From positions 1 through 64,000 of the forward strand of contig CAVTZU010000020.1 of the NCBI GenBank assembly GCA_963739305.1: a DNA stretch of 64,000 nt, written 5' to 3'. Of the stretch, positions 1 to 62,648 are shown in pieces. The stretch is from Candidatus Bathyarchaeota archaeon. GTDB taxonomy: Archaea > Thermoproteota > Bathyarchaeia > Bathyarchaeales > Bathycorpusculaceae. The translations under genes were made by a program, and so were the position numbers. The notes under the pieces are model-generated. The model ran no database searches and was not told the origin of the DNA. It saw only the letters and a program-made list of their open reading frames with translations. Within the stretch, counting starts at the first letter, position 1. Every line of letters starts with the position of its first letter.

Positions 1-48
1 TAGCTCCAGATCGATAGCGCGCCTTTTGTTATCCTGCCTTTTTTTGGT

Positions 49-126
49 GTTTGTCGTTAGCTTCAGAAATAGGAACATTAGATCTATTAGTGGTACTGAA
101 AAAGCATAAAGTCAAGGTGTGAGCGC
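49..126 (+). repeat. Degenerate ~78 bp intergenic repeat, family A copy 1
   Basis: Hand alignment to 2053-2129 gives about 59/78 identities with one gap; ends in GAGCGC next to the stop codon of the DUF1801 gene. Confidence 0.85.
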
Positions 127-495
127 TTATTTCTTCTTACCCAAGTTTTCCTTAGCTCTGTATCTTACAATTTTCTTTACCAAATCCAATGGGATAGGTT
201 TGTTTAGGGGAAATCTGATAGTGCCTTTGCCTACCTCATGGCCAGACAATTCCTCTTTGAATGCCTCAATAGCTGAGATCTTGGGATAAAACCCAACATG
301 ATTTTTGAAGGCTGCAAACCATACTAAGATGCCATTCAGTTTGAAAGCAGGCATTTGATAACTAATTAGTTCTTCAGCTTCAGGTGCAGATTCCTTGATC
401 GCTTGTCTCAGTTCTTCTAAAATACTTTGGACATTTTCGGGAAATATGGCAATATACTCATCTATTGTTTTGAATACTTTCCTAGGTGTTGCCAT
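127..495 (-). CDS. DUF1801 (YdhG-like) domain protein
   Basis: TIDEYIA..., ISYQMPAF, FAAFKNHVGFYP, KGTIRFP motifs; ATG at 495 preferred over the longer ORF. Confidence 0.85.
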   Translation of the reverse strand: MATPRKVFKTIDEYIAIFPENVQSILEELRQAIKESAPEAEELISYQMPAFKLNGILVWFAAFKNHVGFYPKISAIEAFKEELSGHEVGKGTIRFPLNKPIPLDLVKKIVRYRAKENLGKKK

Positions 496-614
496 AGTGC
501 TTCCCCGCAATTCGTATTTCCTGGGCAAAAAGGCTCAGAACCTAATAAGCGCTCCGCTTTGATGACTCAAATCACGCGTTTCCTTTTTCAGGGTATTGTT
601 TGCAGGATTGCCAT

Positions 615-674
615 CAGAATAGGGCATTAGAATTATTGTTCTACGTGAAAGAATGTACAGTTAAAACGCGCGCG
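615..674 (+). repeat. Family A repeat copy 2 (more diverged), ending in CGCGCGCG
   Basis: CAGAATAGGGCATTAGAATTATTG...TGAAAGAATGTACAGTTAAAACGCGCGCG aligns with 64-126. Confidence 0.6.
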
Positions 675-726
675 GGTCACAAGTTTATTAATATCAAATG
701 TCATCTCAAAAACTAAGGTGAACAAT

Positions 727-1173
727 ATGGGTGTAAAGGAAAACCTCCAGTTGATGAAAACACTTGATGACGCATGGAATGCCGGACCTAGGAGTCCGCT
801 TTGGGAGACGTTTAAGAAACGTCATAGAGAAGACGTCAAAGTTTACTGGCCCGCTCAACCTCTTCCTACAGTAGGACGACACAGCCACGACGTCGAGGCT
901 ACAGAGTTCTTCAAAACTTTCGACAACAAACTAGTCAACAACCCCTACAAGATCGCCTTCGGTGATGAAGACCACACATGTACCGTTGCTGATTGGACAG
1001 TGACTATGAAAGGACCCATGAAAGGCGCAGATGGAAAGATTATCCAACCCACTGGAAAAACGGCGAAGCTTGAATTCTGCACAGTCGCCACATGGAAAAA
1101 CGGCGAAATCGTCGAAGAAAGGCTATTTTATGATGTTGTCGGGTTTATGAAGCAACTTGGGCTATCCAAATAG
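727..1173 (+). CDS. Ester cyclase / SnoaL-like (NTF2-fold) protein
   Basis: PTGKT...FCTVATWKNGEIVEERLFYD is typical of the SnoaL-like family; TATA-like TTTATTAA at about 684. Confidence 0.8.
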   Translation: MGVKENLQLMKTLDDAWNAGPRSPLWETFKKRHREDVKVYWPAQPLPTVGRHSHDVEATEFFKTFDNKLVNNPYKIAFGDEDHTCTVADWTVTMKGPMKGADGKIIQPTGKTAKLEFCTVATWKNGEIVEERLFYDVVGFMKQLGLSK

Positions 1174-1197
1174 GTCAACCAACTCGCGCGCTTGAAG

Positions 1198-1935
1198 TCA
1201 GCTATGTTCAGGTAAAGACTCATGAGCAAAGCTGCGCGCGCGCTTGCAGTGTTTTGCGCGCTTGTCATATTCTTTGCTGAGCTTTTCGACAGGAAACGAG
1301 CTTCCATGTGAGGGAAGAATCGTCCTGCAACCGAAGTCAATGATTTTCTTCCAGCTTTTCAGCACTTGTTCTGGTTCCTCAGCGTATGGAAACATTGATT
1401 GGAATGGAAAGGAGCTGGCCAAGTCTCCTATGAATGCTTCACCACTTCGTAAAAGAACTGAAACTGAACCTTTGGTGTGACCAGGAGTAAAAAGGACTAC
1501 CCCATCGAACCCAAAATCATCTAGAAGAAGCTCTTTGGAAATCAGAATTTCGGGTTCAACAGGAGTAAAGCTGCGGTCGATTGAGCTGAGCTTGCGACTT
1601 ACGGAAGAAAATATCCTTCTGACAGAGTTTGTTGGTGGCGGCACAGCAATTTGCGCTTCCTTCAAGAGTGCAGCTTCGTTGATGTGGACTGCCACGGGGC
1701 ACTGACAGCTTTTCTTTATTAGAGCAAGTCCGCCGACGTGATCATAGTGAACATGGGTGATAATAATCAATTTGATTTCGCTGGGAGAAATACCTAACTT
1801 GCGCAGGCAATCGAAGAACATTTGCTCCTTGCCCTTACACCCAGCATCTACCAAAATACAACCTTTTTGACCTTTCAACAAATACGCTGTAGCGAGGCCC
1901 ATATGGATTCCGTAGTGTTCAGTCAAAGGAACCAC
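1198..1935 (-). CDS. MBL-fold metallo-hydrolase
   Basis: THVHYDHVGG, TPGHTKGS, FIGD and PSHG motifs. Confidence 0.9.
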   Translation of the reverse strand: MVPLTEHYGIHMGLATAYLLKGQKGCILVDAGCKGKEQMFFDCLRKLGISPSEIKLIIITHVHYDHVGGLALIKKSCQCPVAVHINEAALLKEAQIAVPPPTNSVRRIFSSVSRKLSSIDRSFTPVEPEILISKELLLDDFGFDGVVLFTPGHTKGSVSVLLRSGEAFIGDLASSFPFQSMFPYAEEPEQVLKSWKKIIDFGCRTILPSHGSSFPVEKLSKEYDKRAKHCKRARSFAHESLPEHS

Positions 1936-2052
1936 TCTGATACTCTAAGCTGTTCCGTTCCTTCTGAATATGTGCATGCGCATTAATAATCTCCAGCATA
2001 TGACAACAAACAATCGTAGGCGAAGTGCAGATTTCTGGAGTTTGGTTTCACA

Positions 2053-2129
2053 GTTTGTCGTTAGGCGGGAAAGTGGGACATTAAATTTATTAGTGATACT
2101 GAAAAGGCATTAAGGTTAAGTGCGAACGC
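2053..2129 (+). repeat. Family A repeat copy 3
   Basis: About 76% identical to 49-126 by hand alignment; ends TGCGAACGC. Confidence 0.85.
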
Positions 2130-2161
2130 AAATTCATATGGAAAAACAGAAAAAAGGGGTT

Positions 2162-2218
2162 GCGCGGGAGATATCTCCACTAGGCTGCGTAAATGGGAAT
2201 TTACGCTCTGATTTTCGG
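2162..2218 (+). repeat. 57 bp repeat family B copy 1, with internal palindromes
   Basis: 43/57 ungapped identity to 4341-4397; perfect palindrome GGAGATATCTCC and inverted repeat GCGTAAAT-n4-ATTTACGC. Confidence 0.85.
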
Positions 2219-2228
2219 AGTTCACACC

Positions 2229-2438
2229 TTATTTTCGCTTTCTGAATAACATTATTTCATCATGATTGCAGATGTATTCAAAACGTGCGATCTTCAAACC
2301 CAGCCTCGACAAACTTTTGGGCCTCGCTCATTGCACTGACTATTGCCGAATGATACTCGTCTGTCTCAAACTCTACAAGTTGCGTATAGATCAATGTGTT
2401 ACCGATATTCTTGTGCCCCAACAATCTCATGCGCGCGC
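2229..2438 (-). pseudogene. Tyrosine recombinase/integrase C-terminal remnant
   Basis: RLLGHKNIGNTLIYT (catalytic H and Y box), then DEYHSA...EAGFE/YICNHDEIMLFRKRK*; 5' end truncated at GCGCGCGC 2431-2438; a 16-nt insertion near 2277-2298 shifts the frame. Confidence 0.85.
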
Positions 2439-2493
2439 AGACTGTCGAGTTGCAGCGGAAAGGTGTTTTATAGTGAATAGACACTGTTAGAAC

Positions 2494-2904
2494 TTGGTCC
2501 TTATGCAGCGTCCTAAATGGCTGAGTGGATGGGGAAAGGGGAAGAACCTTTTTGAAGGGTCGCTGATAATAGACATTCCAGACATTAAGGTTGTCGAAGC
2601 TAGCTTCAATAACAAACTGGTTCTTTTTGCTGTCGGGACATTACCGCGGCGTGAAACAGTCGTTTCCGGCGAGAGAAGTGCCGCAGCCATTGAAGAGAAA
2701 CACAAAACCGACTTGGAATGGAGGATATTCTATGATTCAACCGCTCTCCCCGATTTCATACCTATTGACAAAGCTAGAGATTTCATGGCTGGAACCGTTG
2801 CAGTGTCATCTGGAAGCGCGTCTGTTTACAATACAGGCACAGTTTACATCGCAAGCGGCAACAGACCTTCCAAGGGGAACGCTCCCCATCCTTCTGGATT
2901 ATGA
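2494..2904 (+). CDS. Hypothetical protein, possibly a fragment
   Basis: 136 aa ORF, no recognisable motif. Confidence 0.4.
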   Translation: MVLMQRPKWLSGWGKGKNLFEGSLIIDIPDIKVVEASFNNKLVLFAVGTLPRRETVVSGERSAAAIEEKHKTDLEWRIFYDSTALPDFIPIDKARDFMAGTVAVSSGSASVYNTGTVYIASGNRPSKGNAPHPSGL

Positions 2905-3029
2905 AATGGCAAAGAAGATAGAGGAAGCGAGAAAGAAAAATAGGTTGAACTTAATGCGTGCGCTTCAGCCTAATCAGAGCTAGTATGACTGGAAAAATTA
3001 TGGCAACAATCATGCCTAGAACATCCAAA

Positions 3030-3773
3030 TCAGTCGAAGAAGTTGACTGAGACGGTGTAGGAGTCTTCAGCAACGAATTGCAAAGAATTTATTGGATACG
3101 CGGTCCATCCGCCGTCTTCGAAGTCCGGCGGGGTCCAACCCAGAGGATTGGAGCTGCCTGTAGCTTCAACCCATATCCAACCAGTGCCTCTGCCGTCATT
3201 AATATCCCAATAGTCATTTGCGTTCGAGAACTCTGGAAGCCAAATTAATAGAGCACAATGGTCAGTTGCATCAATGACGGCAGCGTCAAAACCTGCACCC
3301 ACATAGATTGTGCCACACAGGAAGGCCATGTCTTCACAGTCTCCGATGGCTTTGACGCCTGTAGTTTCGTTGAAAGCGTGTGCAAATTCGTCAGCGTTCT
3401 GCGCCCACTCGTCTTGGGCGACACCATTTCTGATGAAGTTGTCGCTGTCGTAGCCGTATTCTGTCCATGTTTGAACGTACTTTAGGATGGCAACTGCCCT
3501 ATCGGTCTTACTTGGATAGTTGTTTTGGAACCATTCGCCGATGCTATAAGCCAGTTCCTTGTTATCGCCGAGCGTTTCAGACGCAAGGTTGGGTAAGTAC
3601 CCGGGAAGATCTCCGTTAGTTCCTGCGTTATTCCTGTCTATTCCCCAGTTGTCATACCAGTCACCATTTTGCTGACTGAAGCTTGAAGCTGGAAACCCGC
3701 TGGCTGTTTTGATCAGAGCAACAGCTGACGTGCAGAGAAGCAAGAATAGGATGAGGTATCGCATGTGAGTCAT
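3030..3773 (-). CDS. Secreted transglutaminase-like (papain-fold) protein
   Basis: Signal peptide; GDCEDMA catalytic Cys motif, HCALLI, WIWVEAT. Confidence 0.75.
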   Translation of the reverse strand: MTHMRYLILFLLLCTSAVALIKTASGFPASSFSQQNGDWYDNWGIDRNNAGTNGDLPGYLPNLASETLGDNKELAYSIGEWFQNNYPSKTDRAVAILKYVQTWTEYGYDSDNFIRNGVAQDEWAQNADEFAHAFNETTGVKAIGDCEDMAFLCGTIYVGAGFDAAVIDATDHCALLIWLPEFSNANDYWDINDGRGTGWIWVEATGSSNPLGWTPPDFEDGGWTAYPINSLQFVAEDSYTVSVNFFD

Positions 3774-3789
3774 TTGTTGTCCTCGGCTA

Positions 3790-4269
3790 TCATATTGGGA
3801 TGGTTAGGCTTGCAAACATTATGAGCCCCAAGAAGATTTCGTAACAGAGCAGGAAGACTCCAACAGCCATGGGATGTTTGTTGATGTCGTCTAGTTCAAT
3901 GCCGAATAGCCTGAGTTTGGTAAAGACTAGGCAGAACAAACCGCCGAAGAACAGACTCACGAAGAAGCTGAGGACAACAACGAGAAGCCTCTGCAGGTTG
4001 AAGTAGGCGCCAACACTCACTGACTGCGAAAGGAAGAAGGGGTTAACCATCGAACCGTAAACAACCAAGCCAGCATAAACAAAAAAACCGCCCACAAAAA
4101 GGCTAGTTGCCAGAGAATTACCCTTGATGCTTTCGAACTCTTTAATCTTCGGCGTCAAAAGCGTGATGCTCCTAATTCCAATGTACCCAATCAGCAAACA
4201 AATCAGGCTTGAAACGAAAGCACGGACAAACCACAAGATCAATGATAATAGGAACTCTGAACCAGCCAA
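3790..4269 (-). CDS. DUF350-like 4-TM membrane protein
   Basis: Duplicated TM-(E..IK.N.A.)-TM pattern. Confidence 0.6.
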   Translation of the reverse strand: MAGSEFLLSLILWFVRAFVSSLICLLIGYIGIRSITLLTPKIKEFESIKGNSLATSLFVGGFFVYAGLVVYGSMVNPFFLSQSVSVGAYFNLQRLLVVVLSFFVSLFFGGLFCLVFTKLRLFGIELDDINKHPMAVGVFLLCYEIFLGLIMFASLTIPI

Positions 4270-4340
4270 CTCTATCTCCCAATCAAAGGATACTGTGGAG
4301 CAGCAAATATAACTCTTTCAAAGCGGGCGAGTCTTAGCGC

Positions 4341-4397
4341 GCGCGGAAGATATCTCCAATCAATGCCTTAAATGGAAATTTGCACTTTGATTTGCGG
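4341..4397 (+). repeat. 57 bp repeat family B copy 2
   Basis: 43/57 identity to 2162-2218; starts within the GCGCGCGCG run at 4337-4345; 7 bp beyond the peroxiredoxin stop. Confidence 0.85.
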
Positions 4398-4404
4398 CCG
4401 ATTA

Positions 4405-4885
4405 TCAGGTCATTTGTTCGAGAAATTTCGCGATCTCGGTGTAGCTGGGTTCCACTCTTGGATCTTCCGAAATCCATGCATACCTTACCATGCCTTGCTT
4501 GTCCAGGATGAAGATTGAGCGTTTCGCGGCTGTGTAGCCTGGTAGTCCTCCGAAGTTTTGTAATTCTATGCCGTAGAGTTTTGTGACTTCGCGGTTGTAA
4601 TCGCACAGGAGAGGAAAGTTCAGCATGTTTTTCTCAGCGAATGCTTTGCTTGACCAGGGGTCGTTGACACTAACTCCAACGACTTTAGCTTTGAGAGCGC
4701 CGAGGTTTGCAAGCGAGTCCCTGAACGTGCACATCTCTTTTGTGCAAACGGAGGTGAACGCGCCTGGGAAGAATGCGAGCACGAGGTTGTCGCCTTGGAA
4801 GTCTCTGAGGCTTCTTGATTTGAACTCGTTGTCAACAAGTTTGAAATCTGGGGCTTTCTGCCCAACCTGTACAGTTGGATGTCAT
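4405..4885 (-). CDS. Peroxiredoxin (AhpC/TSA, BCP-like); apparent frameshift just after ATG
   Basis: VQVGQKAPDFKL...FFPGAFTSVCTKEMC; the ATG at 4885 is one base out of frame with the body. Confidence 0.85.
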
Positions 4886-5133
4886 CTTTAATCAACCCTT
4901 GACCTTCGCTTTTCATCTAAATCTCATAAATATATGTGTGTTGTCCTTTCTAGCGGACCGTGACAAATTTCGAGCCAAGACGTCGTGGCAACCACCTTTC
5001 CGACCTTTCGTGGCTGCAGCAGTCTGCTTAGAACATGGTTCTTTTCTGCAATCCGCGAAAGCCAGTTTTCCGAATTCAATCAGAAGCATAAGTCTTATCA
5101 CGGAGAAAGAAGCTGATTCTGTGGAGACGAACG

Positions 5134-5592
5134 TTGAACAGGACAATGTTGATTCTTGTGGGAATTGGCTTGGCAGCAATCATCATTGTCGGTGTTGTCG
5201 CAGGATTTTATCTAACTCAGAATAACAAACCGACAACGACTTTTGACGCTTTGCCGATAGCGACGCCGCAGTGGGATGTTAACCTGGAGAAGCCGGCCGC
5301 TTTCATAAATCTATCAATAAAAAACAATGGAGACATAAATCAGACAAATGTCGTGGTCAAATTGACAGGCGGGTTCTCCAATTCATCAAGCCAAGTGCCC
5401 GCTCAGCTGTATTGGATCGTAACCAAGAACGTAAGCATGATCAAGCCAGGTGAGATATTTACGATCTCAAGGATTTTCGATTTTGGATGGTACTTCTTCT
5501 ACCGAGTTGAAGTTTCCAGCTCGACAGTGACGAAGGAGACATTTGATCAATGGGTGGAGTGGCGATCATGGACAGTGCCACAACCCACTTGA
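5134..5592 (+). CDS. Membrane-anchored hypothetical protein
   Basis: N-terminal TM helix followed by a beta-rich domain. Confidence 0.7.
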   Translation: MNRTMLILVGIGLAAIIIVGVVAGFYLTQNNKPTTTFDALPIATPQWDVNLEKPAAFINLSIKNNGDINQTNVVVKLTGGFSNSSSQVPAQLYWIVTKNVSMIKPGEIFTISRIFDFGWYFFYRVEVSSSTVTKETFDQWVEWRSWTVPQPT

Positions 5593-5697
5593 CAGGTCAC
5601 CGGAGGCTATCTTAGATCTAGAGAATCATTGATTGTAAAACGGAAATTGTTGTTGAATCGCTAAGAGTTATTATTTGCTTTGCTATTGTTGATCTCT

Positions 5698-6327
5698 ATG
5701 GGAATTCTGGATTTCGTCGTGACGATTATTCTCGTCACCGTGTCAGGTGCTTTGGCTCCTGGTCCTTTGTTTTTTGCAAACATTTCGAAGGGAGTTGAGC
5801 TCGGAGCGAGAAGCGGCCTTGTCTTTGCTGTCGCGCACACGATGGTTGAGTTCGGCCTAGTCATGCTGTTGAGCTTAGGGCTTTTCGTGATCAACAGCGA
5901 GCTAGTCCGGACAGTAATTGGCGTCGCAGGAGGCATTGTTCTGATCGGTTTTGGTGTGACCCAAGTCTACGGTTCACTTAAGCCTAGGCCCCAAAGAGTT
6001 GAGGAAAGAGGTAAGGCGAGTTCACGTCGGTTGCTGCTGTTGGGGTTGGCTCTGACCGGTTTGAACCCGTTCTTCATCATCTGGTGGCTTACCGCAGGAG
6101 CGCAGCTCATCGTTATTGCGTTGGAGTTTGCTTCGTTTGCAGGAGTCTTGCTCATGTATGTCTGCCATGTTTGGATGGATTATGTTTGGCTAGCAGGTAC
6201 CGCATATCTTGCCAAGACAGGGATGAAAGTTGCTGGTTTGAAGTGGTACAGAGTATTGACGGCTGTGTTCGGCGTAGTCTTGGTCTACTTCGGGCTGAGT
6301 TTCTTGATCAATTCAATCGTGTTATGA
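5698..6327 (+). CDS. LysE family translocator
   Basis: SGALAPGPL and LNPFFIIWW motifs, about 6 TM helices. Confidence 0.85.
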   Translation: MGILDFVVTIILVTVSGALAPGPLFFANISKGVELGARSGLVFAVAHTMVEFGLVMLLSLGLFVINSELVRTVIGVAGGIVLIGFGVTQVYGSLKPRPQRVEERGKASSRRLLLLGLALTGLNPFFIIWWLTAGAQLIVIALEFASFAGVLLMYVCHVWMDYVWLAGTAYLAKTGMKVAGLKWYRVLTAVFGVVLVYFGLSFLINSIVL

Positions 6328-6344: not shown

Positions 6345-6674
6345 TTATTTCTCAAGTTCGAGCCCTGCGTGTTGCCACCAGCGTTTCCCACCCTTGAAAT
6401 CCAGCGCGCGACTGTAGCCCAAGTCCAGAAGCTTTCTGGCAGCTTTTGTGCTGGCGTGGCATGTGTAACTGGCACAGTAGACGATGATGGTGTCGGTTTT
6501 TTTCAGTTTCTGTTTGGCGAGCTTTTCCAGTTCTTCCAGCGGGATGTTGATTGCTCCGGGAATGTGTCCCTTGTCGTATTCTTCCTTTGCCAAGACTTCT
6601 ACAAGCTTGAATTCTTCTTTGTTTTCGAGCATCTCAAGAAGGGTTTCCATGGTGATGAACTTTAGCTTCGGCAT
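6345..6674 (-). CDS. Rhodanese-like domain protein
   Basis: GHIPGAINIP, IIVYCASYTC, FKGGKRWW. Confidence 0.9.
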   Translation of the reverse strand: MPKLKFITMETLLEMLENKEEFKLVEVLAKEEYDKGHIPGAINIPLEELEKLAKQKLKKTDTIIVYCASYTCHASTKAARKLLDLGYSRALDFKGGKRWWQHAGLELEK

Positions 6675-7002
6675 ATGAAAAACACCGCTTTATGAGTGAT
6701 TCGGGGTTGGTTCTTAATAGAATTTACTTAGTTCAGTGCCCTGTTGGATTACGATTACACATGATTAAAATTATCGTAAACGAACTGCCCACTGGCGCGC
6801 GCTAAGGTGGCGTACCGCATTTCTTTTGGCAATCTGCACCTGTTTTCAATGCTTTGAGTCGGGCACCTTGAGCTTTTGTCCACGAAGTCTTACAAAAGAG
6901 CGCGCATCGGAAGCGTTACGAATGTACAGCTGGGCTATTGATTCTTGATTCATAATTCTTTAGAATGTAAAGCTCGAAACATGAGGAATTGGTTGAATAA
7001 AG

Positions 7003-7263
7003 TTGACCGCCAGGAAAACCCGAGATTCAAGTTTGACCCTCAGCGTTCCTCTAGATTTAGCTCGGGAAATATTTAGCGAGAGCGGAGACCTGCCAACCGC
7101 AAGGTTCCCGGCCATGATTATTCTCGCCGAAACTATCGGAAAAGCATTGCCTGCATCACACGAAGACGCCAAGAAGAGACCGAAACCCACCATTATCACC
7201 AGAACGAGAAAACCAAAAACTACCCACAGAAAACCCTTCGATCTCCCCATCCTCACTAGGTAA
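7003..7263 (+). CDS. Hypothetical protein (strand uncertain)
   Basis: 86 aa ORF between CG-run sites; competing antisense ORF at 6960-7256. Confidence 0.3.
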   Translation: MTARKTRDSSLTLSVPLDLAREIFSESGDLPTARFPAMIILAETIGKALPASHEDAKKRPKPTIITRTRKPKTTHRKPFDLPILTR

Positions 7264-7295
7264 AAGAAAGCCCCTTAGCGCGCGTGCAGGCAACG

Positions 7296-41823: not shown

Positions 41824-43578
41824 TCAGAAAATGGAGAGCGGCTTGTACTCACCGAAGATCTCCCGCAGCGTTCCGCATATTTCTCCCAGAGACGCATACT
41901 CCTTCACTGCGCTCAGTACTAGTGGCATCAGGCTCTCGTTTTCGTGCTCAGCCGCATTGCGCAAACGGTTCAGTGCCTCATCCACTTTGGACCGGGTTCT
42001 CTGTCTCTTCGTCATCTCCAACTGCTCGACCAGCCGTTTTTCTATCGCAGGGTCAATTCTCAACGTCTTGATAGGAACTTCGTCCTGACCCACAAAATCG
42101 TTTACTCCTACAACGATTCTTCTCTTCGCTTCAACTTCCTTCTGAAAACGATACGCGCTTTCAGTGATCTCCTTCTGCATGAAACCCTTCTCGATCGCTG
42201 CTACCGCCCCGCCCATTCCGTCAATCTGCTCCACATACCTCTGTGCCCTCTCTTCAATCTCACTGGTCAAGGATTCGATGTAGTACGAACCCGCAAGCGG
42301 ATCAACTGTGTCAACTGTTCCGCTCTCGTAGGCGATTATTTGCTGCGTCCTTAAGGCGACCATTACCGCTTGTTCGCTGGGCAAAGCATAGGCTTCGTCG
42401 AACGAGTTCGTATGCAGCGACTGGGTCCCTCCAAGCACGCCTGATAGAGCTTGCATTGTTACGCGCACGATGTTGTTGAAAGGCTGCTGAGCCGTTAGCG
42501 CCACGCCCGAGGTCTGAGTGTGGAACCGAAGCATCCACGAGTTAGGGTTCTTAGCCTTGAACCTTTCCCGCATGATCTTTGCCCACAGTCGCCGTGCCGC
42601 GCGGAACTTGGCGACTTCCTCAAAGAAATTATTGTGAGCCGCGAAGAAGAAAGACAACCGCCCTGCAAACTTGTCAACGTCGAGACCGCGGTCTATGGCT
42701 GCTTGCACGTATGCGATCGCGTTTGCGAAGGTGAAAGCCACTTCTTGAACTGCCGTTGCGCCTGCTTCCCTTATGTGGTAGCCGCTTATGCTTATCGTGT
42801 TCCACTGAGGCATGTTCTGGCTGCAGTAGACAAATATGTCTGTGATCATACGCATCGAAGGTTTAGGCGGAAAAATGTACATGCCTCTGGCTACATATTC
42901 CTTGAGCACATCGTTCTGAACCGTGCCGCCTAACCTGGCTTGATCTATACCCTGCTTCTGCCCAACCGCTACGTACATGGCCAGCAAAACATTTGCCGGC
43001 GCGTTAATCGTCATTGAGGTTGTCACTTTGTCAAGAGGAATTCCCTCAAACAGAGTCTCCATGTCTCTTAGGCTGCTTGAGCTCACGCCGACTTTTCCAA
43101 CCTCTCCCAGGGCTAATGGATGGTCACAGTCGTAACCGACCTGCGTGGGAAAATCAAAAGCCACGCTTAAACCAGTCTGCCCATGTTCCAGTAGGTACTT
43201 GAACCGTTTGTTCGTGTCCTCTGCCGTTCCAAAACCGGCGTACTGCCGCATCGTCCACAACCGAGCACGATACATCGTGGTGTAAACCCCCCGTGTAAAC
43301 GGATACTCACCAGGAAAACCCGAGTTCTTAAGATAGTCCAGGTCCCTAACGTCCAAAGGAGTGTAGAGCCTGCTAACAGGTATACCCGAGGTCGTCGCGA
43401 ACTCACCTTTCTCAGGAAGCTTCTCGAGACTTTTCGCAGCGATCCCGTTCTCCCATTCGTTTTTCCGCCGCCGCAGTTCATGTAGGCTTTCTTTATCCGA
43501 CAAGGTCAAAGACACCCAGAGACAACACTGGTCAGCAAACATAAAAGAATTGTCAACAACAAACCCCAACATCGGCAC
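41824..43578 (-). CDS. Methylmalonyl-CoA mutase large (catalytic) subunit; start uncertain
   Basis: [42 protein letters not shown]. Confidence 0.93.
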
Positions 43579-43607
43579 ATCAAGCTCACGACGTACACTA
43601 AGGCAAA

Positions 43608-43916
43608 GTGAGTGCGAAAACTGTTAGGAAATTGAAGAAGATTGAGAGGTCTGCGGGGTTCGTGAAAGGTGGGGTGATCATGTCCAAGAGTGGCTTTACA
43701 AAGGATGCGGAGCGAGAAGCCAAGAGACACGGCATCAAGACGCTCAAATATAAACAGAAGAGAACAATTGATGAATGTTTCTTTCTAGGCGATTATGAAT
43801 GCCTGCACCAAGAGGGAAGAGGGGAGAAAGAACGGCAGAGAAACAAAGGCGGGTCATGGAGAAGAAAACCTTCTGACGCTGACAAGAAGAGAAAGAAGAA
43901 CAACGATTGGTGGTAA
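43608..43916 (+). pseudogene. Possible Mrr-like restriction endonuclease C-terminal fragment
   Basis: VSAKTVRKL...GVIMSKSGFTKDAEREAKRHGIKTL; no N-terminal catalytic part visible. Confidence 0.5.
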
Positions 43917-44053
43917 TCGTGCGCGCCAGGAGAGCCAGGACTTATTATTCGACAACGCCCGGTTTGACGGGAATACGTAATGGAGGAGTGGAGATTTAGG
44001 TGCACGCTTTGCCTTCCGAGTTCTTCTCAATAATGAACAAGCTACGATGTACA

Positions 44054-45109
44054 TTATTCTTTATCGTCGTGTTTTGCTGGCAGTGATTCAAGTCTTTTCT
44101 TGAAGGATGCTGCAGATTGGTCATCGGCGAGTATGTATAGAAAATCTCCTTTTTGCAGTTCAAAGTTGTCGGTCATATTGTGAATTATCTCGCCATTTCG
44201 GTAGACCAACAGTACTGGATCGCCTCTATCTATGTCTCCATACTTTATTCCTTGAGAAGTGATTTCGAATCCAACGACGTATTTGGATTTGAGCTTTTCA
44301 GATAATACTATGCCGGCCACTTCATTAGAAATTACCGAAGATGCTAGCATTTTTCCTATTAAGTCGTAGATGGGTGCAACCTTGTCTGCTCCTGCAGCCT
44401 TAGCACTTTCTACTAGCTCCTTATCATTTATGATGGAGACAGCATGGATGTTTTTGTTGAGCTTCTTGGCGCTCAAAACGGCAAGCATATTATCTCCGTC
44501 GTCATCAAAGGTGGATATTAGGTAGCGAGCTTTCTCCACCCCAGCCTTCTTAAGAGTCTCATAAATGTGTGTAGTCGGTCCCCCCACAGCCGCTATTCCA
44601 TCCTTTCTAAGCATTTCAAGTTGATCGTTATCCTTTGCTATGACAACGAACTCCAAGCCTAGCGACTTCAGACTATCGACAACGTACTTGCCTAGGAATT
44701 TGTAACCTACAACTATCACGTGATTCTTCATTCTGCTTACCCTCCTTGTTGTTATTTTCTCAGCTCGCAGCTCGCTCTTCAGAGCAACCGTAAATGTCCC
44801 TTGGACAAGGGAAGCTGCTGACCCAACGCTAAGTATGAAAACTACTATTAGAAGAGCCTTTTCAGAAGCTGGCATAGTGAGAATGCCAGGATTGTAGATC
44901 CCTATAGTCGTGATCGTTGAAACAGCTCCGAGAAGAGCGGTCAACGGGTCCAGCCCCTGATAATATATGAAAATCAAAGCTCCGAAAACAAACATCGAGC
45001 CCAATATTGAAAGTTGAATCCAAACAGATTTGACAATATAAAACGGTGTGTATGCCATAAGATCTAGCAAATCTCTTAGTTTTCTCACGGCAACTTCTCT
45101 GCAAGGCAT
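44054..45109 (-). CDS. Potassium-channel-like protein with RCK/TrkA-N domain
   Basis: 2 TMs around STITTIGIY, then NHVIVVGY Rossmann RCK. Confidence 0.85.
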   Translation of the reverse strand: MPCREVAVRKLRDLLDLMAYTPFYIVKSVWIQLSILGSMFVFGALIFIYYQGLDPLTALLGAVSTITTIGIYNPGILTMPASEKALLIVVFILSVGSAASLVQGTFTVALKSELRAEKITTRRVSRMKNHVIVVGYKFLGKYVVDSLKSLGLEFVVIAKDNDQLEMLRKDGIAAVGGPTTHIYETLKKAGVEKARYLISTFDDDGDNMLAVLSAKKLNKNIHAVSIINDKELVESAKAAGADKVAPIYDLIGKMLASSVISNEVAGIVLSEKLKSKYVVGFEITSQGIKYGDIDRGDPVLLVYRNGEIIHNMTDNFELQKGDFLYILADDQSAASFKKRLESLPAKHDDKE

Positions 45110-45224
45110 GTTATTTAGTTCTAGTAGACGGCTCAGAAACGATTAGGTTGCTCCATCCATAAGTGGATTGCGTTTGGCACGTAGTATTGCTAGAAATTCT
45201 CCTTGAAGCGCGCACTCTTTCTGT

Positions 45225-47036
45225 TCAGGAGTGTGGTTCGCTAATTTCTTTGACGCTTCCTGAAAGTTTAACCTCTTCAAGTCTTGACCTGATCTCTATG
45301 TTGTAAATTCGCCCGACGTCTTCTCGTGTGATTATGCCAATCAGCTTCATGCTGCCCCTTTGCTCAATAACTGGCAGACGTCCGATCTGATTACTAGTCA
45401 TCTTGTCAAAAGCCGTGTAAAGACTCTCATCAGGAAACGCCGTGACAAGCTCTTTCGTCATTACGGAGCTTACCATAGTCGTTGCTCTCTGGTCTGGATG
45501 AATCTGAAGAATATCCGTAAGCGTAACCATACCCACAAGTCTGCCGTTATCATCCAAGACTGGCACACCTTTTATTCCGTTCTTTGCCATTATCTCAGCG
45601 ACCTCTGAAAGCAGTGAGTTGGGGGTGGTTGTGATGACCTTTTTGGTCATTGCGTCTTTGACGAAGAGCTTCTGCATTAGGGGGATGGAGTATTCACCCT
45701 GGTGGGCTGGCGACTCGGCCCTTGATTGAACCTGGCTTCTATAGATCGTGTTCCTTCCTGTGATTACGTAGGCAATGGCGGTGGCTATCATTGAGGGAAC
45801 CAACAGAGTTAATCCTCCGGTCATTTCGCTAACCATGAGTATGACGGCAACAGGCACCTTGCCCACGCCTCCGAAAAATGACATCATCCCCACTATCACG
45901 AATGCGGCCAGGCTCGGACCGAAATTTGGCAAAACTCCGTCGAGGAACATCCAGAGGACTGTTCCCAGCAAGCCGCCTATCACCAAAGCTGGTGCGAAGA
46001 CTCCTCCGCTTCCTCCTGAGCCTATTGAAAGAGACGTGGCAACTATTTTGGCTACGATAATAATTGGAATCAAGGTGAGCGGGAGCAAGGCAAAGTTGCC
46101 GTTCATTGCTATCTGCAGCCAACCGTAGCCCATACCGAGCACCTGCGGGAGAAACATTCCAATAACACCCACTAAAAATCCTCCTAGAGCCGGCTTCAAG
46201 AAGCTCGGTATCCCTAGACGCTGAAAAAGGGTCCGTGTGCCGTAGAACCCTCTGACGTACACGATGCCAACTAAACCGCAGATTATGCCCAAGACAGCGT
46301 ATAGTGGCAGATCAAGCGGGTCGCTGAAGGCACGTAGATTCATGTAGCCAAATATGGGCGTCCATCCAGCAAATGATGCGAATATACTGTATCCCACGGT
46401 CGAAGCTATGAAAGCTGGCAGCAATGTCTCCACCTCAAAGTCTCCCATGTAAAGAATCTCAGCGCTCATTAGGGCCCCTCCAAACGGCGCCTTGAAGATG
46501 GAGCCTATCCCTGAACCTATGCCGACTGCAACTGCGATTCTTCTGTCGTGTAAGCTAAGATGAAGTCTCCTGCTCAGGAAGGAACCGAAGCCTGCCCCTA
46601 TCTGCGCTGTCGGACCTTCCCTGCCTGCACTTCCGCCAGACCCGATCGTTAACGCCGAGGCCAGAAGCTTAACGAAAGGTATTCTGGATCGAATCTCACC
46701 CTTTTTATTGTGAAAAGCGTCTATTGCCGCGTCAGTTCCGTGGCCCTCGGCTTCTGGTGCAAAGCCGTAGACGAGTATACCACAGACGAGCCCTCCAAGA
46801 GTAGTTATCAACGGAATCAAGTAGAGACGGGGCGAGACTGATCCTAAGCTTCCGCCTTCTCCGACTGGCGAAGGAGGAAAAAACCCAGTAACGCCGCCGA
46901 GTAGGATCGTGCTTGTGAGGCTAATTGCTTCATAGAAAAGAATACTCCCTATTCCGCTGACCGCACCTATCAAAAGAGCGATCGGAACCCATTTTCTAAG
47001 ATAACCAAGCTCGTGAGAAGCTCTGGGGGACTTCAC
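45225..47036 (-). CDS. CLC chloride channel/antiporter with CBS pair
   Basis: GHGTD, GREGP, GGVFAP, C-terminal CBS domains. Confidence 0.93.
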   Translation of the reverse strand: MKSPRASHELGYLRKWVPIALLIGAVSGIGSILFYEAISLTSTILLGGVTGFFPPSPVGEGGSLGSVSPRLYLIPLITTLGGLVCGILVYGFAPEAEGHGTDAAIDAFHNKKGEIRSRIPFVKLLASALTIGSGGSAGREGPTAQIGAGFGSFLSRRLHLSLHDRRIAVAVGIGSGIGSIFKAPFGGALMSAEILYMGDFEVETLLPAFIASTVGYSIFASFAGWTPIFGYMNLRAFSDPLDLPLYAVLGIICGLVGIVYVRGFYGTRTLFQRLGIPSFLKPALGGFLVGVIGMFLPQVLGMGYGWLQIAMNGNFALLPLTLIPIIIVAKIVATSLSIGSGGSGGVFAPALVIGGLLGTVLWMFLDGVLPNFGPSLAAFVIVGMMSFFGGVGKVPVAVILMVSEMTGGLTLLVPSMIATAIAYVITGRNTIYRSQVQSRAESPAHQGEYSIPLMQKLFVKDAMTKKVITTTPNSLLSEVAEIMAKNGIKGVPVLDDNGRLVGMVTLTDILQIHPDQRATTMVSSVMTKELVTAFPDESLYTAFDKMTSNQIGRLPVIEQRGSMKLIGIITREDVGRIYNIEIRSRLEEVKLSGSVKEISEPHS

Positions 47037-47171
47037 TTGTTCTTATCCTTCTCGAATATCCACTGCACAGTGAGGTCGGATATAAACGGCACGCACGCGC
47101 GCTACGAAAATATCTAAGTGGTCTAAATACATGGATGAGATCGGTTATCCTTGCGCGCGCGTTTAACGCGT

Positions 47172-47360
47172 TTATTCATATCGAAGCAAGTAGAGAGGCT
47201 TTGCGGCTTCCTTCTTATTCGTTTCCAAATTGAGAATGCTATTGCGTCGGTTCTCGTCACGTGAGTTCAGTCTTGGCACGCGTGCTCTTTTCCCGTTTGT
47301 TCTTTCTTTTGTCGCGTTCGCTTCTTCCGATGGTCCAGTTCTGTTTTCATTCCAAACCAT
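47172..47360 (-). CDS. Small hypothetical protein
   Basis: AGGAGG RBS and TTTATA box upstream; flanked by CG-run sites. Confidence 0.5.
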   Translation of the reverse strand: MVWNENRTGPSEEANATKERTNGKRARVPRLNSRDENRRNSILNLETNKKEAAKPLYLLRYE

Positions 47361-47557
47361 CTGTACTGATCCTCCTGAGAACTCCGCACCCTTGACTGTA
47401 TAGCGTATTCGATATAAATATTTCTATTTGACTATGAAGGCTCTCAGCGCGCGCCTCTCGACCAGTCTTTTGAAAGAACCAATCTTCGCCCGCTCCGCAA
47501 AGTATTCAATAAGACATACAAATGCCTAGAACAAAACCAGTCTTTCATGCGCGCTTA

Positions 47558-48160
47558 TCAACGTTGACCGTGTTTCGGTTTCTTTGTCTTTGGAAAGTCT
47601 TGCTTTAGATATGGACAGGCTTTGTCTTCTAAACGATCATAGTATCCTACTTCCCAGTGAGCGGAACTGATCAAGCCATATTCGGTGCATCCGAGCATCC
47701 AAGATACTAGGTGAGCCATCTCAACTCTTTCAGCAGAATTGAAGTAGCCCTCTCTGATCATCTCAACTGCTATTCTGCTCAGTCTGCTGAGAAAGCGGCA
47801 GAGGGCAGTGAATTTTTCAGGACCAGACTCGGCGATTCTTTTGTCAGGCTGCCAAGCGACATATTTCGCAAGTGGATTTTCTGCAATTGGGTCAACAGCA
47901 AACCTGTCTTTGGACAACACGGTTCCGAGCTTGAAAGCGACCTTGCTCTTGACAACCCGCACGTGTTGGGATTCCAGCAGCATACGAATGCTCAACACGA
48001 CATCATCGTCTATTCTGTCTCTGATTAGGAAGTGCAGATCTCTTACACCCTCAACGTCTTTCACGAAATCGTATAAACCTAGGAGTATGTTTCCAGTCTT
48101 GTCTGCCTTGCACCGCAGAACAGCGACACTCCAATTATCAACCGACATTATATCACTCAC
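47558..48160 (-). CDS. Hypothetical protein
   Basis: 200 aa ORF with globular composition. Confidence 0.7.
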   Translation of the reverse strand: MSDIMSVDNWSVAVLRCKADKTGNILLGLYDFVKDVEGVRDLHFLIRDRIDDDVVLSIRMLLESQHVRVVKSKVAFKLGTVLSKDRFAVDPIAENPLAKYVAWQPDKRIAESGPEKFTALCRFLSRLSRIAVEMIREGYFNSAERVEMAHLVSWMLGCTEYGLISSAHWEVGYYDRLEDKACPYLKQDFPKTKKPKHGQR

Positions 48161-48208
48161 ACGAGTTTATCTTCCGGTTTTTTCACGTGTTACAAAGACG
48201 ACCGGTTC

Positions 48209-48295
48209 TTATGGTCCTTGTTTGGCTTTTCTTCTTTCTTTCTTGCGCGCTCTTTCCCTGCGCTTCTTCTTTTTATTCCTTTTCTTGAATGGCAT
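48209..48295 (-). CDS. 28-aa Lys/Arg-rich peptide
   Basis: MPFKKRNKKKKRRERARKKERRKAKQGP*; GTGAGG RBS upstream. Confidence 0.45.
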   Translation of the reverse strand: MPFKKRNKKKKRRERARKKERRKAKQGP

Positions 48296-48794
48296 TTTTC
48301 CTCACTCTATACAAGGCAGGACTACTAAAAAGGATTACGTATTGCCTATAACAATAGCCAATGACAAATATTAAAGCTCAACAAGACCCCGCTATGACCT
48401 CGTCCAAGGCGCTGAGCGCGCGCGAGTGTAACGGTGAAGATCGACGGATGAGGTTTGACGCGCGCGCTGACAGAGTAACTTTGACATCATTGCGACAGCC
48501 AACATCGTGCACTTCTGTCTTTGGTAGCCTGTTAAGTTCATTCATGGCAATGATGTCGGTAGCGCGCGTGTCAGTATAACTAATTTACTATTACTATCGC
48601 CAATACGACAAACTTATAAGCAATCTTGTGCATAATACGCGTTGGCGCGTTTTTGTTCAGCGCCAAGGGAAGGACTGTGACCCTTTCATACACTTTGCGT
48701 TTCCTCAGAAGAGCTAAAGTAGAGCGATATTGCTACATTCCTCCACCCTTTCCTTCCCTCCCATTGGCGCGAGCGAACACCATCAGCGTGGACA

Positions 48795-49076
48795 TCAAAA
48801 AGGCTGAATCTCTATGATGATTTTCTTCACTGCTAATTCACAGATCTTTCTAATTCCCCTCTTGCCACTTTCATAGCTGACTTTTATCAGGTTTGTTTCG
48901 TGTAGTCTACGAACTTGTTCGCTGACATATGGTTGGCTTAGCTCAAGTCGCTGGGCTATCGTCGAAATGTCCAGATGTTCTTTTGAGAGTAACTGCAATA
49001 CTCGCAGACTCGTCGAGTTTAACGCGTCAGCAACCTTTAGGGCAGCTTCACCCGAAACAACAATCTCCGCAGACAT
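48795..49076 (-). CDS. ArsR-like HTH regulator
   Basis: LDISTIAQRLELSQPYVSEQVRRL...GKRGIRKIC. Confidence 0.85.
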   Translation of the reverse strand: MSAEIVVSGEAALKVADALNSTSLRVLQLLSKEHLDISTIAQRLELSQPYVSEQVRRLHETNLIKVSYESGKRGIRKICELAVKKIIIEIQPF

Positions 49077-49429
49077 TACGAACAGCTCTGTTTACCGTAT
49101 GAACTTCTTCAGCGTTTATAATGCTTGTGGGGTTTCCGATTAATATAACTATGCAGATATGCTTATTGGAGACATTTAGGACTGTATTCAATATAGCAAA
49201 ATAAGAGTATTTATAAGCAATTGTTTATATTCATTTGAGTCGTGTTATAAGAACAATACGAAAACTGAGGAGATGCAGAAGCATGCCGAGCAAACAAAAA
49301 AAGAAGAAAGCACTTCCAAAAAAGTACACGAAAAACAAGAAGTAACTCAACGAACCCAGACGTAATAACGCGTTATGCATTCGGGTTGCGCGCGCTAATG
49401 GCAAACTTGCAGGAAGGATATGAAGAAAA

Positions 49430-57461: not shown

Positions 57462-58058
57462 ACGCCTTTCACTGTGAAGTGAAGTGTTGTGCCTCTACAT
57501 TTTATAGCTTTTTGACGCTCTCGCTCTTTCGCTAACGAGGGTCGCGCTTTTCAATCGCGCGCTACGAAACGATTCCGTAGTGTCAAATGAATTCCGGTCG
57601 TGACTTTACCAGGAAGACCAGACTCAACGTGGAAAGGACAAGTGCAGCGCGGCGCGCGCTAAATCATGAACGGAATCCCTGTTGATAACTGGGGATTCCA
57701 GACGAAAAACAAGGCAGACCGTTAGCCAAAAGCACTTTTCTGCCACTTTTTTGTCAATGGAATTCAAAATTCGGAGAAAAATTTAAAAGCAAGTTATGTG
57801 CGCATTAGGAAGCTGAATGAGGGAAATGGTGGAAGTAATTTTAACTCCCTTCTCTCCTTTCTCCCCTCGAGAATAATCTACCATTCTCCCTCATTACCAA
57901 TTCTAGCCGCCAAGTGCACTTATAGCTTATGGAACAATGTTCTAGTCGCCGGAATAGTCACGTCGGAACATAACGCTCTGCGATTTCAGGAAAGAGTAAA
58001 TGCGGTTCACCAACAAATATGGAAGTCACAAACCGATATCGCTGGTTGTTGGTTGAAA

Positions 58059-58541
58059 ATGGCCAAAGTCCTAATTGTCTATGATTCGAGGTCGGGCAAC
58101 ACCCAAAAGATGGCTCTGGAAATAGCCGAAGGAGCCAAAACCGTGAAACATGTCGATGTGATCGTTAAGAAGGTTGGTCAAACGACTCTTGATGACCTTG
58201 TTGGTGCTGACGGAATCATCATCGGCTCCCCAACGTATTATGGGTTGATGTCGGGGAAACTCAAGGCCCTGATCGACGAGTCGGTGAAGATTCACGGAAA
58301 ACTGGATGGTAAGGTCGGCGCAGCGTTTACGAGTTCCGGCGGAGTCGCGTCTGGGGCCGAGACCACTTTGCTATCGATCGTACAGGCGATGTTGGTTCAC
58401 GGTATGATTATTCAAGGAAGGTCTGACGACAAGCACTATGGCACCGCCGCGGTAGGTCAGCCAAACGACGATGACATCAAATCGTGCAGAGATCTTGGAA
58501 GAAGAGTTTCGAACCTAGCTGCAAAATTGGAGACGAAATGA
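58059..58541 (+). CDS. Flavodoxin/WrbA-like protein
   Basis: YDSRSGNT, GSPTYYG, GKVGAAF. Confidence 0.88.
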   Translation: MAKVLIVYDSRSGNTQKMALEIAEGAKTVKHVDVIVKKVGQTTLDDLVGADGIIIGSPTYYGLMSGKLKALIDESVKIHGKLDGKVGAAFTSSGGVASGAETTLLSIVQAMLVHGMIIQGRSDDKHYGTAAVGQPNDDDIKSCRDLGRRVSNLAAKLETK

Positions 58542-58737
58542 AAGAGAGCGTTATTTTTTCCAGTATTGTAAAGCAACCGAAACGACTTCTAGCGCGCCTG
58601 CGTGTCTTTGAATAAGAAGACATGCGAGGTATAGCAGAAGATTCTTCCAGAAAGCAATATCAGCATGAACGACCTTAGGAATGTTCGGAGAAGGAGTCAT
58701 TGCATAATACCAACTGTCTTGTTAAGGCGATGGCCTT

Positions 58738-60588: not shown

Positions 60589-60784
60589 TTTTTGAACTAG
60601 AGTCAATATGCTTGCCAAAATTCCCTTCATGGTGAAGGGAACTAATCAACAAGCTTGCGGCATTGCGGCGTCGTTGAGAACGCGCTACAAGAATGAAAAC
60701 ATTTGAATAAATCTCTTCCAAGCCTGCCAGTTCCTTGCCTATTTTTGATCTGAATTCCAGGTTCATAAACCTCATCAATGCAGG

Positions 60785-61123
60785 ATGAACAGAATCTCAA
60801 GATGTAACGAGTTGACTTGTTTGAGGCACTTAGCGTTCTATTACGCGGTTGGTTTCGTGATCTTGGGTTGTCTATTGCTGGTCGCGCTTTCTTCAACGCT
60901 CGTTGGAGTGGTGCTGGGTGGCTTTGACCCGTATGCTGTCACCAGCTTAGCTGCGGCGATGTTCTTGCCTTTCGTGATCGGGGCGCTTTCGTGGCGCGGC
61001 TGGAAAGAAGTGCAAAAGAGGCAGACGCAGGAATTAGCGCATAAACCTCTTGTTGGAGTAGAAGAACAGGAAACGATCGAACAGAATTCAGGCACTCGTC
61101 AAAATCGACCAGCCGAAGCGTAA
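60785..61123 (+). CDS. Small 2-TM hypothetical protein
   Basis: Two hydrophobic segments. Confidence 0.55.
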   Translation: MNRISRCNELTCLRHLAFYYAVGFVILGCLLLVALSSTLVGVVLGGFDPYAVTSLAAAMFLPFVIGALSWRGWKEVQKRQTQELAHKPLVGVEEQETIEQNSGTRQNRPAEA

Positions 61124-61254
61124 TAGTGCGCGCTAATACCACGCGGTTCATTCCGACGATAACGCTATTTGGCCAACGCGCGCTAGAAACGGGGCGTCCG
61201 CAACCTATTTAAGAATCATGGTTATCACCACGTCGATGGTTTGGTGCGCAAATT

Positions 61255-62614: not shown

Positions 62615-62648
62615 GAGCGCGCGCTTGACAACAGGTTCTCTAATAGCG

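Follow-up and report, generated by a model that had tools for sequence, protein, structure and literature searches.

Three co-oriented copies of an intergenic repeat of about 100 nt, which we call family A, are found among small accessory genes at the left end of the first 64 kb (here called the window) of contig C20 in a Candidatus Bathyarchaeota metagenome-assembled genome (MAG; 2.32 Mb, 36 contigs, 47% G+C, completeness 97%, contamination 7.8%). The family derives from the promoter module of a single gene that can be named: a small membrane-protein gene downstream of the native module, for which we use our own label, anc. All three window copies are on the + strand, at 25-126 (copy 1; covariance-model match 25-125), 582-679 (copy 2; 582-674), and 2032-2130 (copy 3; 2032-2128). 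Copy 1 is abutted at its 3′ end by the stop codon of a convergent DUF1801 gene (127-528, − strand; Pfam PF08818 over 130-528, E 7.8e-19). Copy 2 is followed 53 nt downstream by a SnoaL-like gene (718-1173, + strand, likely ATG at 727; PF07366, E 6.7e-19), and between this gene and copy 3 lies a gene for a metallo-beta-lactamase (MBL)-fold hydrolase (1198-1935, − strand; PF00753 over 1201-1935, E 7.8e-25). Of the three, only copy 2 faces a gene, that for the SnoaL-like protein; copy 3 faces none. In five congeners no synteny with the window's first 3 kb was found; only the repeats, the SnoaL-like gene (70% identity), and a 1.26-kb block (95% identical) matched.

The repeats had been noticed previously from the sequence alone. 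To avoid circularity, a hidden Markov model (HMM) was made from the 16 family A members outside the window and run on the 64 kb; exactly three places were recovered, at 41-126 (E 5.3e-15), 582-679 (E 1.6e-13), and 2033-2130 (E 4.4e-18), and the next best match had an E value of 4.5. The number, positions, and shared orientation of the repeats in the original prediction were thus borne out, but its unit of 78 nt falls short of the actual ∼100 nt, and copy 2, placed at 615-674, is longer than proposed, as the covariance-model match shows. The identity between copies 1 and 3, estimated as about 59/78, was measured as 61/78; the corresponding values are 53/78 for copies 1 and 2 and 50/77 for copies 2 and 3, with a mean column identity of 71% in the alignment of all three. 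Pfam agreed with the gene calls made between the copies (DUF1801, SnoaL, and MBL fold). Each copy had also been said to end in a GCGC-type core. Copy 2 does end in such a run, CGCGCGCG (667-674), with CACGCG (574-579) on its other flank, and at the end of copy 1 there is only GCGC (123-126), with a (GC)3 run (17-22) located 2 nt upstream of its unit; copy 3 has no run at its end.

A genome-wide profile search for further copies gave 19 on eight contigs with iterated nhmmer and 21 with a sequence-only covariance model, and three further contig ends (C10, C12, and C32) break off within the family A motif. The copies sit in accessory-gene islands, the left end of the window being one. Full-unit identity ranges from 55 to 81%, within genomes as between them, with no clustering by genome; subfamilies are set apart in the alignment by indels of 8 to 9 nt, and copy number varies from 2 to 21 across the genus. 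A coding function is ruled out by these indels, together with stop codons in all + frames. Some duplicates are nearly identical: an inverted duplication on C10 (95%), a pair of regions on C13 and C17 (98%), and a 1.3-kb tandem duplication on C32 that includes a copy. Many contig ends in the MAG are 95-99% duplicates of one another, which suggests strain mixture, and the near-identical family A duplicates may partly reflect this. The C10 duplication (C10:109948-116170; 4.6 kb, 95% identity) holds three family A copies and has a (GC)4 run at its center (113660-113667); it could have arisen through a true inversion or through chimeric assembly of two strains. In a collection of species genomes, records with the core motif carry the titles of Candidatus Bathyarchaeota or Bathyarchaeia MAGs, with one titled Nitrososphaeria. 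The DNA runs that contain parts of the window stretch are labeled as peat, wetland, sediment, and soil metagenomes, and no RNA run was among those listed.

The origin of family A was traced by running the sequence-only covariance model on 151 genomes from the taxonomic family to which the window belongs. Matches were found in 56 of these genomes and in 36 of 70 genera. Outside the genus of the window there is mostly exactly one match, covering only model positions ∼49-100, and at 17 of 29 best-match loci in other genomes an orthologue of anc (44-62% identical by tblastn) begins a few tens of nucleotides or less downstream. In our genome anc (C32:14218-14568) encodes 116 amino acids that belong to no Pfam family, its neighbors in the Atlas are Bathyarchaeota hypothetical proteins, and a family A copy lies 12 nt upstream of it. 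At single-copy loci a divergent arginase-family gene is the upstream neighbor, or the next but one, in 10 of 12 cases; its orthologue in the one-contig relative G001 matches Pfam Arginase. The native state in most genera is thus a single-copy module in a short divergent intergenic region between the arginase-family gene and anc.

At native loci the conserved core is followed by AGGCGG, a Shine-Dalgarno-like stretch, and then by the ATG. Compared by eye, without scoring, the core fits the AAC-N-TTAAAT / TTTATT pattern found ∼35-45 nt upstream of the 37 tRNA genes predicted in this genome. The TATA element starts ∼53 nt ahead of the anc ATG, and at the native copy the distances from the core to the Shine-Dalgarno-like stretch and to the ATG are compatible with transcription starting ∼25-30 nt downstream. 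Judged from sequence, this geometry fits a promoter with a B recognition element (BRE), a TATA box, and a short leader. The corresponding BRE/TATA-like blocks of the window copies were located by alignment, all on the + strand, at 72-88 in copy 1, where the block, the most conserved part of family A, matches the tRNA promoter pattern of the genome, at 622-637 in copy 2, and at 2075-2091 in copy 3. Homology between dispersed and native copies stops ∼40 nt past the TATA start, just before the Shine-Dalgarno-like stretch and ∼10 nt beyond the expected transcription start. We take the module to consist of the BRE/TATA box with some 60 nt of preceding sequence and about 10 bases from the start of the anc transcript. 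The original prediction had named a conserved promoter or 5′ region of one duplicated gene family as a finding that would speak against it; the repeat is indeed the promoter and 5′ region of one gene, but it is not attached to duplicates of that gene.

In five genomes an array of copies lies beside the native site. Between the arginase-family gene and anc, G001 has a 5.6-kb island whose six accessory genes represent the CMD, glyoxalase, GNAT, CDGSH, SnoaL, and thioredoxin families; also in it are three co-oriented family A copies, an integrase pseudogene fragment, and eight (GC)n runs. In the genome studied here the arginase-family gene lies 0.9 kb from the end of contig C4, and anc is on C32, where four co-oriented family A copies occupy the 7.5 kb upstream of it. 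Every copy in the arrays beside anc has the orientation of the native copy: four of four on C32; three of three in G001, in G093, which belongs to another genus, and in G008; and two of two in G009.

We think it somewhat more probable than the contrary that family A consists of diverged promoter-module copies which mark junctions between blocks of accessory genes, and which arose by insertion or duplication at the anc promoter and then spread. According to this proposal, the intergenic spot between the arginase-family gene and anc would have become an insertion hot-spot in the genus of the window and in a few others, where small accessory genes (SnoaL, SDR, MBL, glyoxalase, GNAT, CMD, and others) piled up, and each insertion or segmental duplication would have left one more co-oriented copy of the module. 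Copies and cassettes may then have spread to other accessory islands, including the left end of the window; the three window copies would mark accessory-block junctions because of this spread. Once dispersed, the copies could serve as homology patches for the gain, loss, and swapping of blocks, and a copy with a gene in front of it, such as copy 2 with the SnoaL-like gene, may have kept promoter activity. It is our inference that the copies were produced by insertion events.

An exchange of blocks at a copy is visible in the duplicated regions on C13 and C17. C13:150230-158007 and C17:1-8677 are 98% identical save for a swapped block of 2 to 3 kb, which holds two NosD-like genes in one and a STAND ATPase-TPR gene in the other; its left junction coincides exactly with a (GC)n run, and its right one falls in the 5′ part of a family A copy, ∼45 nt upstream of the conserved core. 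In the metagenomes, contigs diverge from the window at unit ends, at 575/580, 680, and 2124. Together with the assembly breaks at copies, the swap and these divergences favor a role in recombination, which we take to be homologous (Campbell type) rather than site specific. The suggestion that the repeats are left behind by repeated insertion therefore holds in part, in that further copies lie in accessory islands, co-oriented arrays exist, and a block swap has its junction inside a copy.

Several observations weigh against this reading. The regions on C13 and C17 may represent paralogues or variants from different strains, the contamination of the MAG being 7.8%. Neither an excision product nor an empty site was seen in the population-variant check, which covered short Logan contigs from four DNA runs of three studies. 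The only candidate for the loss of a block there was a joint from 22 to 579, which two runs, both from one study, show on one contig each; it has 22 nt on one side and is flagged as unreliable. The other joints inside repeats have sides of 22 to 37 nt, and such short-sided joints are probably cross-alignments of other copies. The placement of dispersed copies is also at odds with expectation if they act as promoters: among 38 nonredundant dispersed loci, the downstream neighbor is co-oriented in only 21 of the 37 that have one, with a co-oriented start within 150 nt at only 9 of 37; the upstream neighbor is co-oriented in 23 of 35. This argues against a general promoter role. Even the SnoaL-like gene, the one gene faced by a window copy, appears from a TATA-like stretch at 684-694, downstream of copy 2, to carry its own promoter. 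Finally, conservation within the 17-nt BRE/TATA block (0.91, compared with 0.60 for the other 93 columns in 40 nonredundant dispersed copies) is subject to ascertainment bias, because the copies were found by similarity.

The same conservation figure is nevertheless what would be expected of a portable promoter, that is, a module recruited repeatedly to express acquired genes and kept by selection, so that its copies are not scars. Copies are well positioned for such a function in a few places: in the C10 array 42 and 59 nt ahead of SDR and MBL genes, in the window 53 nt ahead of the SnoaL-like gene, and in G001 65 nt ahead of a CMD-family gene. Furthermore, the cores in congeners are 85-95% identical to those of the window copies, while most flanking genes are only 63-78% identical. 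Given that sixteen of the 37 copies face convergent genes and only nine have a co-oriented start at most 150 nt away, we consider such promoter propagation possible but unlikely as an account of the whole family; residual promoter activity of individual copies may persist, to judge from their cores.

The original prediction took the repeats to be one arm of a recombination site. In its fuller form, as a dedicated site, this explanation holds that the anc promoter is an integron-like platform or the att site of integrative elements, whose core is where a tyrosine recombinase acting in trans binds and crosses over, so that the copies are of attL/attR type. It is consistent with the co-oriented arrays beside a conserved native copy in five genomes, with the cassette-like small genes between copies, and with the core in other genera, which forms an imperfect inverted repeat around an AT-rich spacer. 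Tyrosine recombinases are also found in the neighborhood. A tblastn search with seven of the genome's integrase open reading frames (ORFs) gave 21 integrase-like loci, and an integrase gene or fragment lies within 3 kb of family A at three of eight independent loci here and five of 23 in relatives, compared with ∼6% expected at random; in G009 an intact integrase is 1.0 kb from a copy. We do not count this proximity (8 of 31 loci) as support, since both features are confined to accessory islands. A terminase fragment overlaps a copy on C27: an ORF with a partial Terminase_6N match (C27:19653-20276; E 2.7e-9) ends inside it, and a partial integrase lies 6.2 kb upstream; the two may be the remnant of a provirus.

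Other results point away from such a site. This genome has 15 PF00589 matches, none of them within 5 kb of a family A copy, contrary to the expectation that copies would lie near tyrosine-recombinase genes, and near the G001 array there is likewise no PF00589 match, other than a short pseudogene fragment, the IntI-specific domain not having been looked for. No integrase-encoding element is flanked by two family A copies in the loci examined. The C13/C17 junction is ∼45 nt upstream of the core and not in it. An attP was sought in viruses, but of 83 viral-contig loci with the pattern (58 + 25) none passed the family HMM at E ≤ 1e-3, plasmid collections not being searched; the 83 are AT-rich chance matches, none with anc. 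A GTTRRRY-type core common to family A was not found: copy 3 has GTTAGGC near its 5′ end, but a whole subfamily has ATCAGAA in that place. RNAalifold on 18 aligned copies gave no conserved pairs, and single-sequence folds of the two strands share no common stem, so that a hairpin is lacking. We thus regard a dedicated attC-like or att-like site as improbable.

The folding results bear equally on the view that the repeat is a small noncoding RNA or a cis-regulatory RNA element. In its favor, most copies give a slightly more stable fold on the + strand than on the − strand. A search of window positions 1-6000 against Rfam at E ≤ 1 gave only an unrelated internal ribosome entry site match at 5767, 14 related loci gave no match at the gathering threshold, and ARAGORN was likewise blank; with no conserved pairs in 18 copies, 8- to 9-nt indels, and a conserved block that is a promoter motif, a structured RNA or attC hairpin was ruled out, and an RNA element of any kind seems to us barely credible.

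The alternating (GC)n runs first noticed at the ends of copies 1 and 2 are widespread. GCGCGC occurs 1101 times in the genome, 2.7-fold over the 412 expected from base composition, and 57% of the 899 runs of (GC)≥3 are intergenic, compared with 11-17% for seven control hexamers. Along the window's contig the runs cluster at 1-7.3, 42.6-49.4, and 57.5-67.6 kb, with none between 7.3 and 26.7 kb; a run scan of the window located them at 17-22, 667-674, 1185-1261, 2431-2438, 4337-4345, 6404-7284, 42598-49395, and 57556-62624. Those in the third group (1185-1191, 1234-1243, and 1256-1261) are at and within the 3′ end of the MBL-fold gene. (GC)n runs also flank tRNA genes and several unrelated families of ∼70 nt, and GCGCGCGC is present 128 to 464 times in each of five congeners and fewer than 30 times in most other genomes of the taxonomic family, and its count ranges from 0 to about 600 over roughly 200 genomes of the class; these counts are not normalized for G+C. 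Of 144 ends of homology breakpoints, 13.9% have a (GC)n run at most 10 nt away; the figure is 1.1% for positions drawn at random and 3.1% when the draw is restricted to intergenic sequence. This enrichment is weak by itself, because about 10% of gene 3′ ends (219/2245) carry a run anyway. The (GC)n runs are a genus-wide punctuation of module boundaries, of which we found no description in the literature searched; nothing relevant turned up there on integrons or intergenic repeats of Bathyarchaeia either. Since the runs are found at the boundaries of many unrelated modules, the GCGC core is no distinguishing feature of family A, and matches do not always end at one, as had been supposed: (GC)≥3 is found at the 3′ end of only four of the 19 copies and (GC)≥2 at seven. 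On the other side, (GC)≥3 lies 12 to 27 nt upstream of the HMM start in six of 19, and 15 of 19 have (GC)≥2 no more than 45 nt upstream.

These flanking runs would be accounted for if the ∼100-nt unit were a nonautonomous element, similar to a miniature inverted-repeat transposable element (MITE), that transposes by itself with the (GC)n runs as ends or target. The divergence of metagenome contigs exactly at unit ends, the range of 2 to 21 copies among congeners, and the lack of clustering by genome are all compatible with mobility of this kind. Alignments that include flanking sequence, however, show neither terminal inverted repeats, other than the self-complementary (GC)n itself, nor a target-site duplication, and on these grounds a MITE proper was rejected. 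There has also been no recent burst, as the copies are only 55-80% identical; (GC)n runs flank many unrelated features, tRNA genes among them, and the native copy beside anc has no (GC)n flanks. We consider a MITE-like origin very improbable.

The runs also have a place in a broader scheme, which we put forward tentatively and with considerable doubt: the repeats may be part of an undescribed modular recombination system, in which modules are joined via (GC)3-5 runs and the anc promoter is a landing pad, comparable to an integron platform without a hairpin attC or an adjacent integrase. The modules would be single genes, tRNA genes, intergenic elements of ∼70-100 nt, the promoter module, and truncated integrase ends, and the (GC)n runs would be made at rearrangement junctions or would be the termini of inserted pieces.

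Truncated integrase ends of this type recur in the islands. The remnant of an integrase proposed beside the array, at 2281-2484 (− strand), has no Pfam match at E ≤ 0.001; by tblastn it does resemble integrase C termini, and we describe it as a tyrosine recombinase C-terminal fragment. Its residues 19 to 64 are 70% identical over 46 amino acids to the C terminus of a PF00589-positive ORF on C9 and 36-64% identical to other integrase C termini in the genome; the homology sets in immediately past the (GC)4 run at 2431-2438. Short C-terminal fragments of one tyrosine-recombinase subfamily recur at window 2281-2484 (− strand), C13:152951-153181, C17:2722-2952, C14:15768-15869, and C13:67366-67458 and at loci L081, L053, and L085 in relatives. 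Among seven fragments, four from this genome and three from relatives, truncation points vary, and a (GC)n run lies at most ∼50 nt upstream of the start of homology in six, directly there in three; a second run is found just past the stop codon in five of seven, the window's own fragment and that at L081 being the exceptions. Three intact homologues have no upstream (GC)n run in the region examined. The fragment on C14 comes after a tRNA-Ile gene.

The window fragment is located not between family A copies but inside a second pair of direct repeats, family B, at 2159-2221 and 4338-4399 (both + strand). Each consists of a (GC)n run and a perfect 12-nt palindrome, the run coming first in the left copy; the two, identified by a direct-repeat search, are 75% identical over 57 nt and have no other copies in the genome. 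They enclose the integrase fragment and three genes (2494-4269), for an unannotated ORF of 136 amino acids, a secreted-looking protein of 247 amino acids, and a DUF350 protein. A contig from a second species of the genus matches positions 3066-4329 at 95% identity, while the neighboring genes are only 63-78% identical; the identity ends at a (GC)n run. The block bounded by family B looks like a decayed integrated element. Two other sets of repeats were observed toward the far end of the window: tandem repeats of ∼156 nt at 61351-62478 (four to six copies, 63-78% identical), in or beside ORFs at 61255-62614, and a pair of dockerin-like 51-nt repeats at 60412-60561.

Family A resembles several known systems without coinciding with any. 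In integrons, attC sites carry a conserved GTTRRRY core at the cassette boundary and imperfect inverted repeats (R''-L'' / L'-R') that fold as a single-stranded hairpin. Family A arrays are similar to integron arrays in that a repeated element stands between small accessory genes, whose set differs from relative to relative, but they have no shared core of this type, no adjacent IntI, and no conserved fold. Archaeal attCs, in contrast, are described as sharing the single-stranded folded structure of bacterial attCs (PMC9668308). Family A also resembles repeats of the repetitive extragenic palindromic (REP)/bacterial interspersed mosaic element (BIME) and MITE types, being short, dispersed, and intergenic and differing in copy number between lineages, but it lacks a palindromic or hairpin unit, terminal inverted repeats, and a target duplication. 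Integrative elements with archaeal integrases of the SSV/pNOB8 type accrete in tandem at a conserved target, for example a tRNA gene, and leave direct att repeats. The native target with its island, the co-oriented partial copies of that target, and the integrase fragments nearby are reminiscent of this process; the family A target, however, is a promoter and not a tRNA gene, the blocks consist of one to three small metabolic genes without an integrase, and copies are also found far away. Mobile or reused promoters have been described in prokaryotes as closely similar promoters ahead of unrelated genes within and across related genomes (commentary PMC3575422). Family A shares with these the occurrence of similar promoter sequences in one genome and across relatives; it differs in that its source gene can be named, co-oriented arrays lie beside that source, the promoter is of the BRE/TATA type in an archaeal host, and about half of the copies face no gene.

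Bathyarchaeia are abundant uncultured archaea of sediment and peat, and little is known of how their genomes change. The locus described here is a conserved promoter doubling as a hot-spot for accessory genes, whose native state can be traced in sister genera, and it exposes the genus-wide punctuation of module boundaries by (GC)n runs. The module is also, by its sequence, a candidate for a strong, portable promoter in Bathyarchaeia. Family A copies serve as markers of gene shuffling in an uncultured peat archaeon, and the gain and loss of cassettes at these copies, as well as the enzyme responsible, become a testable question.

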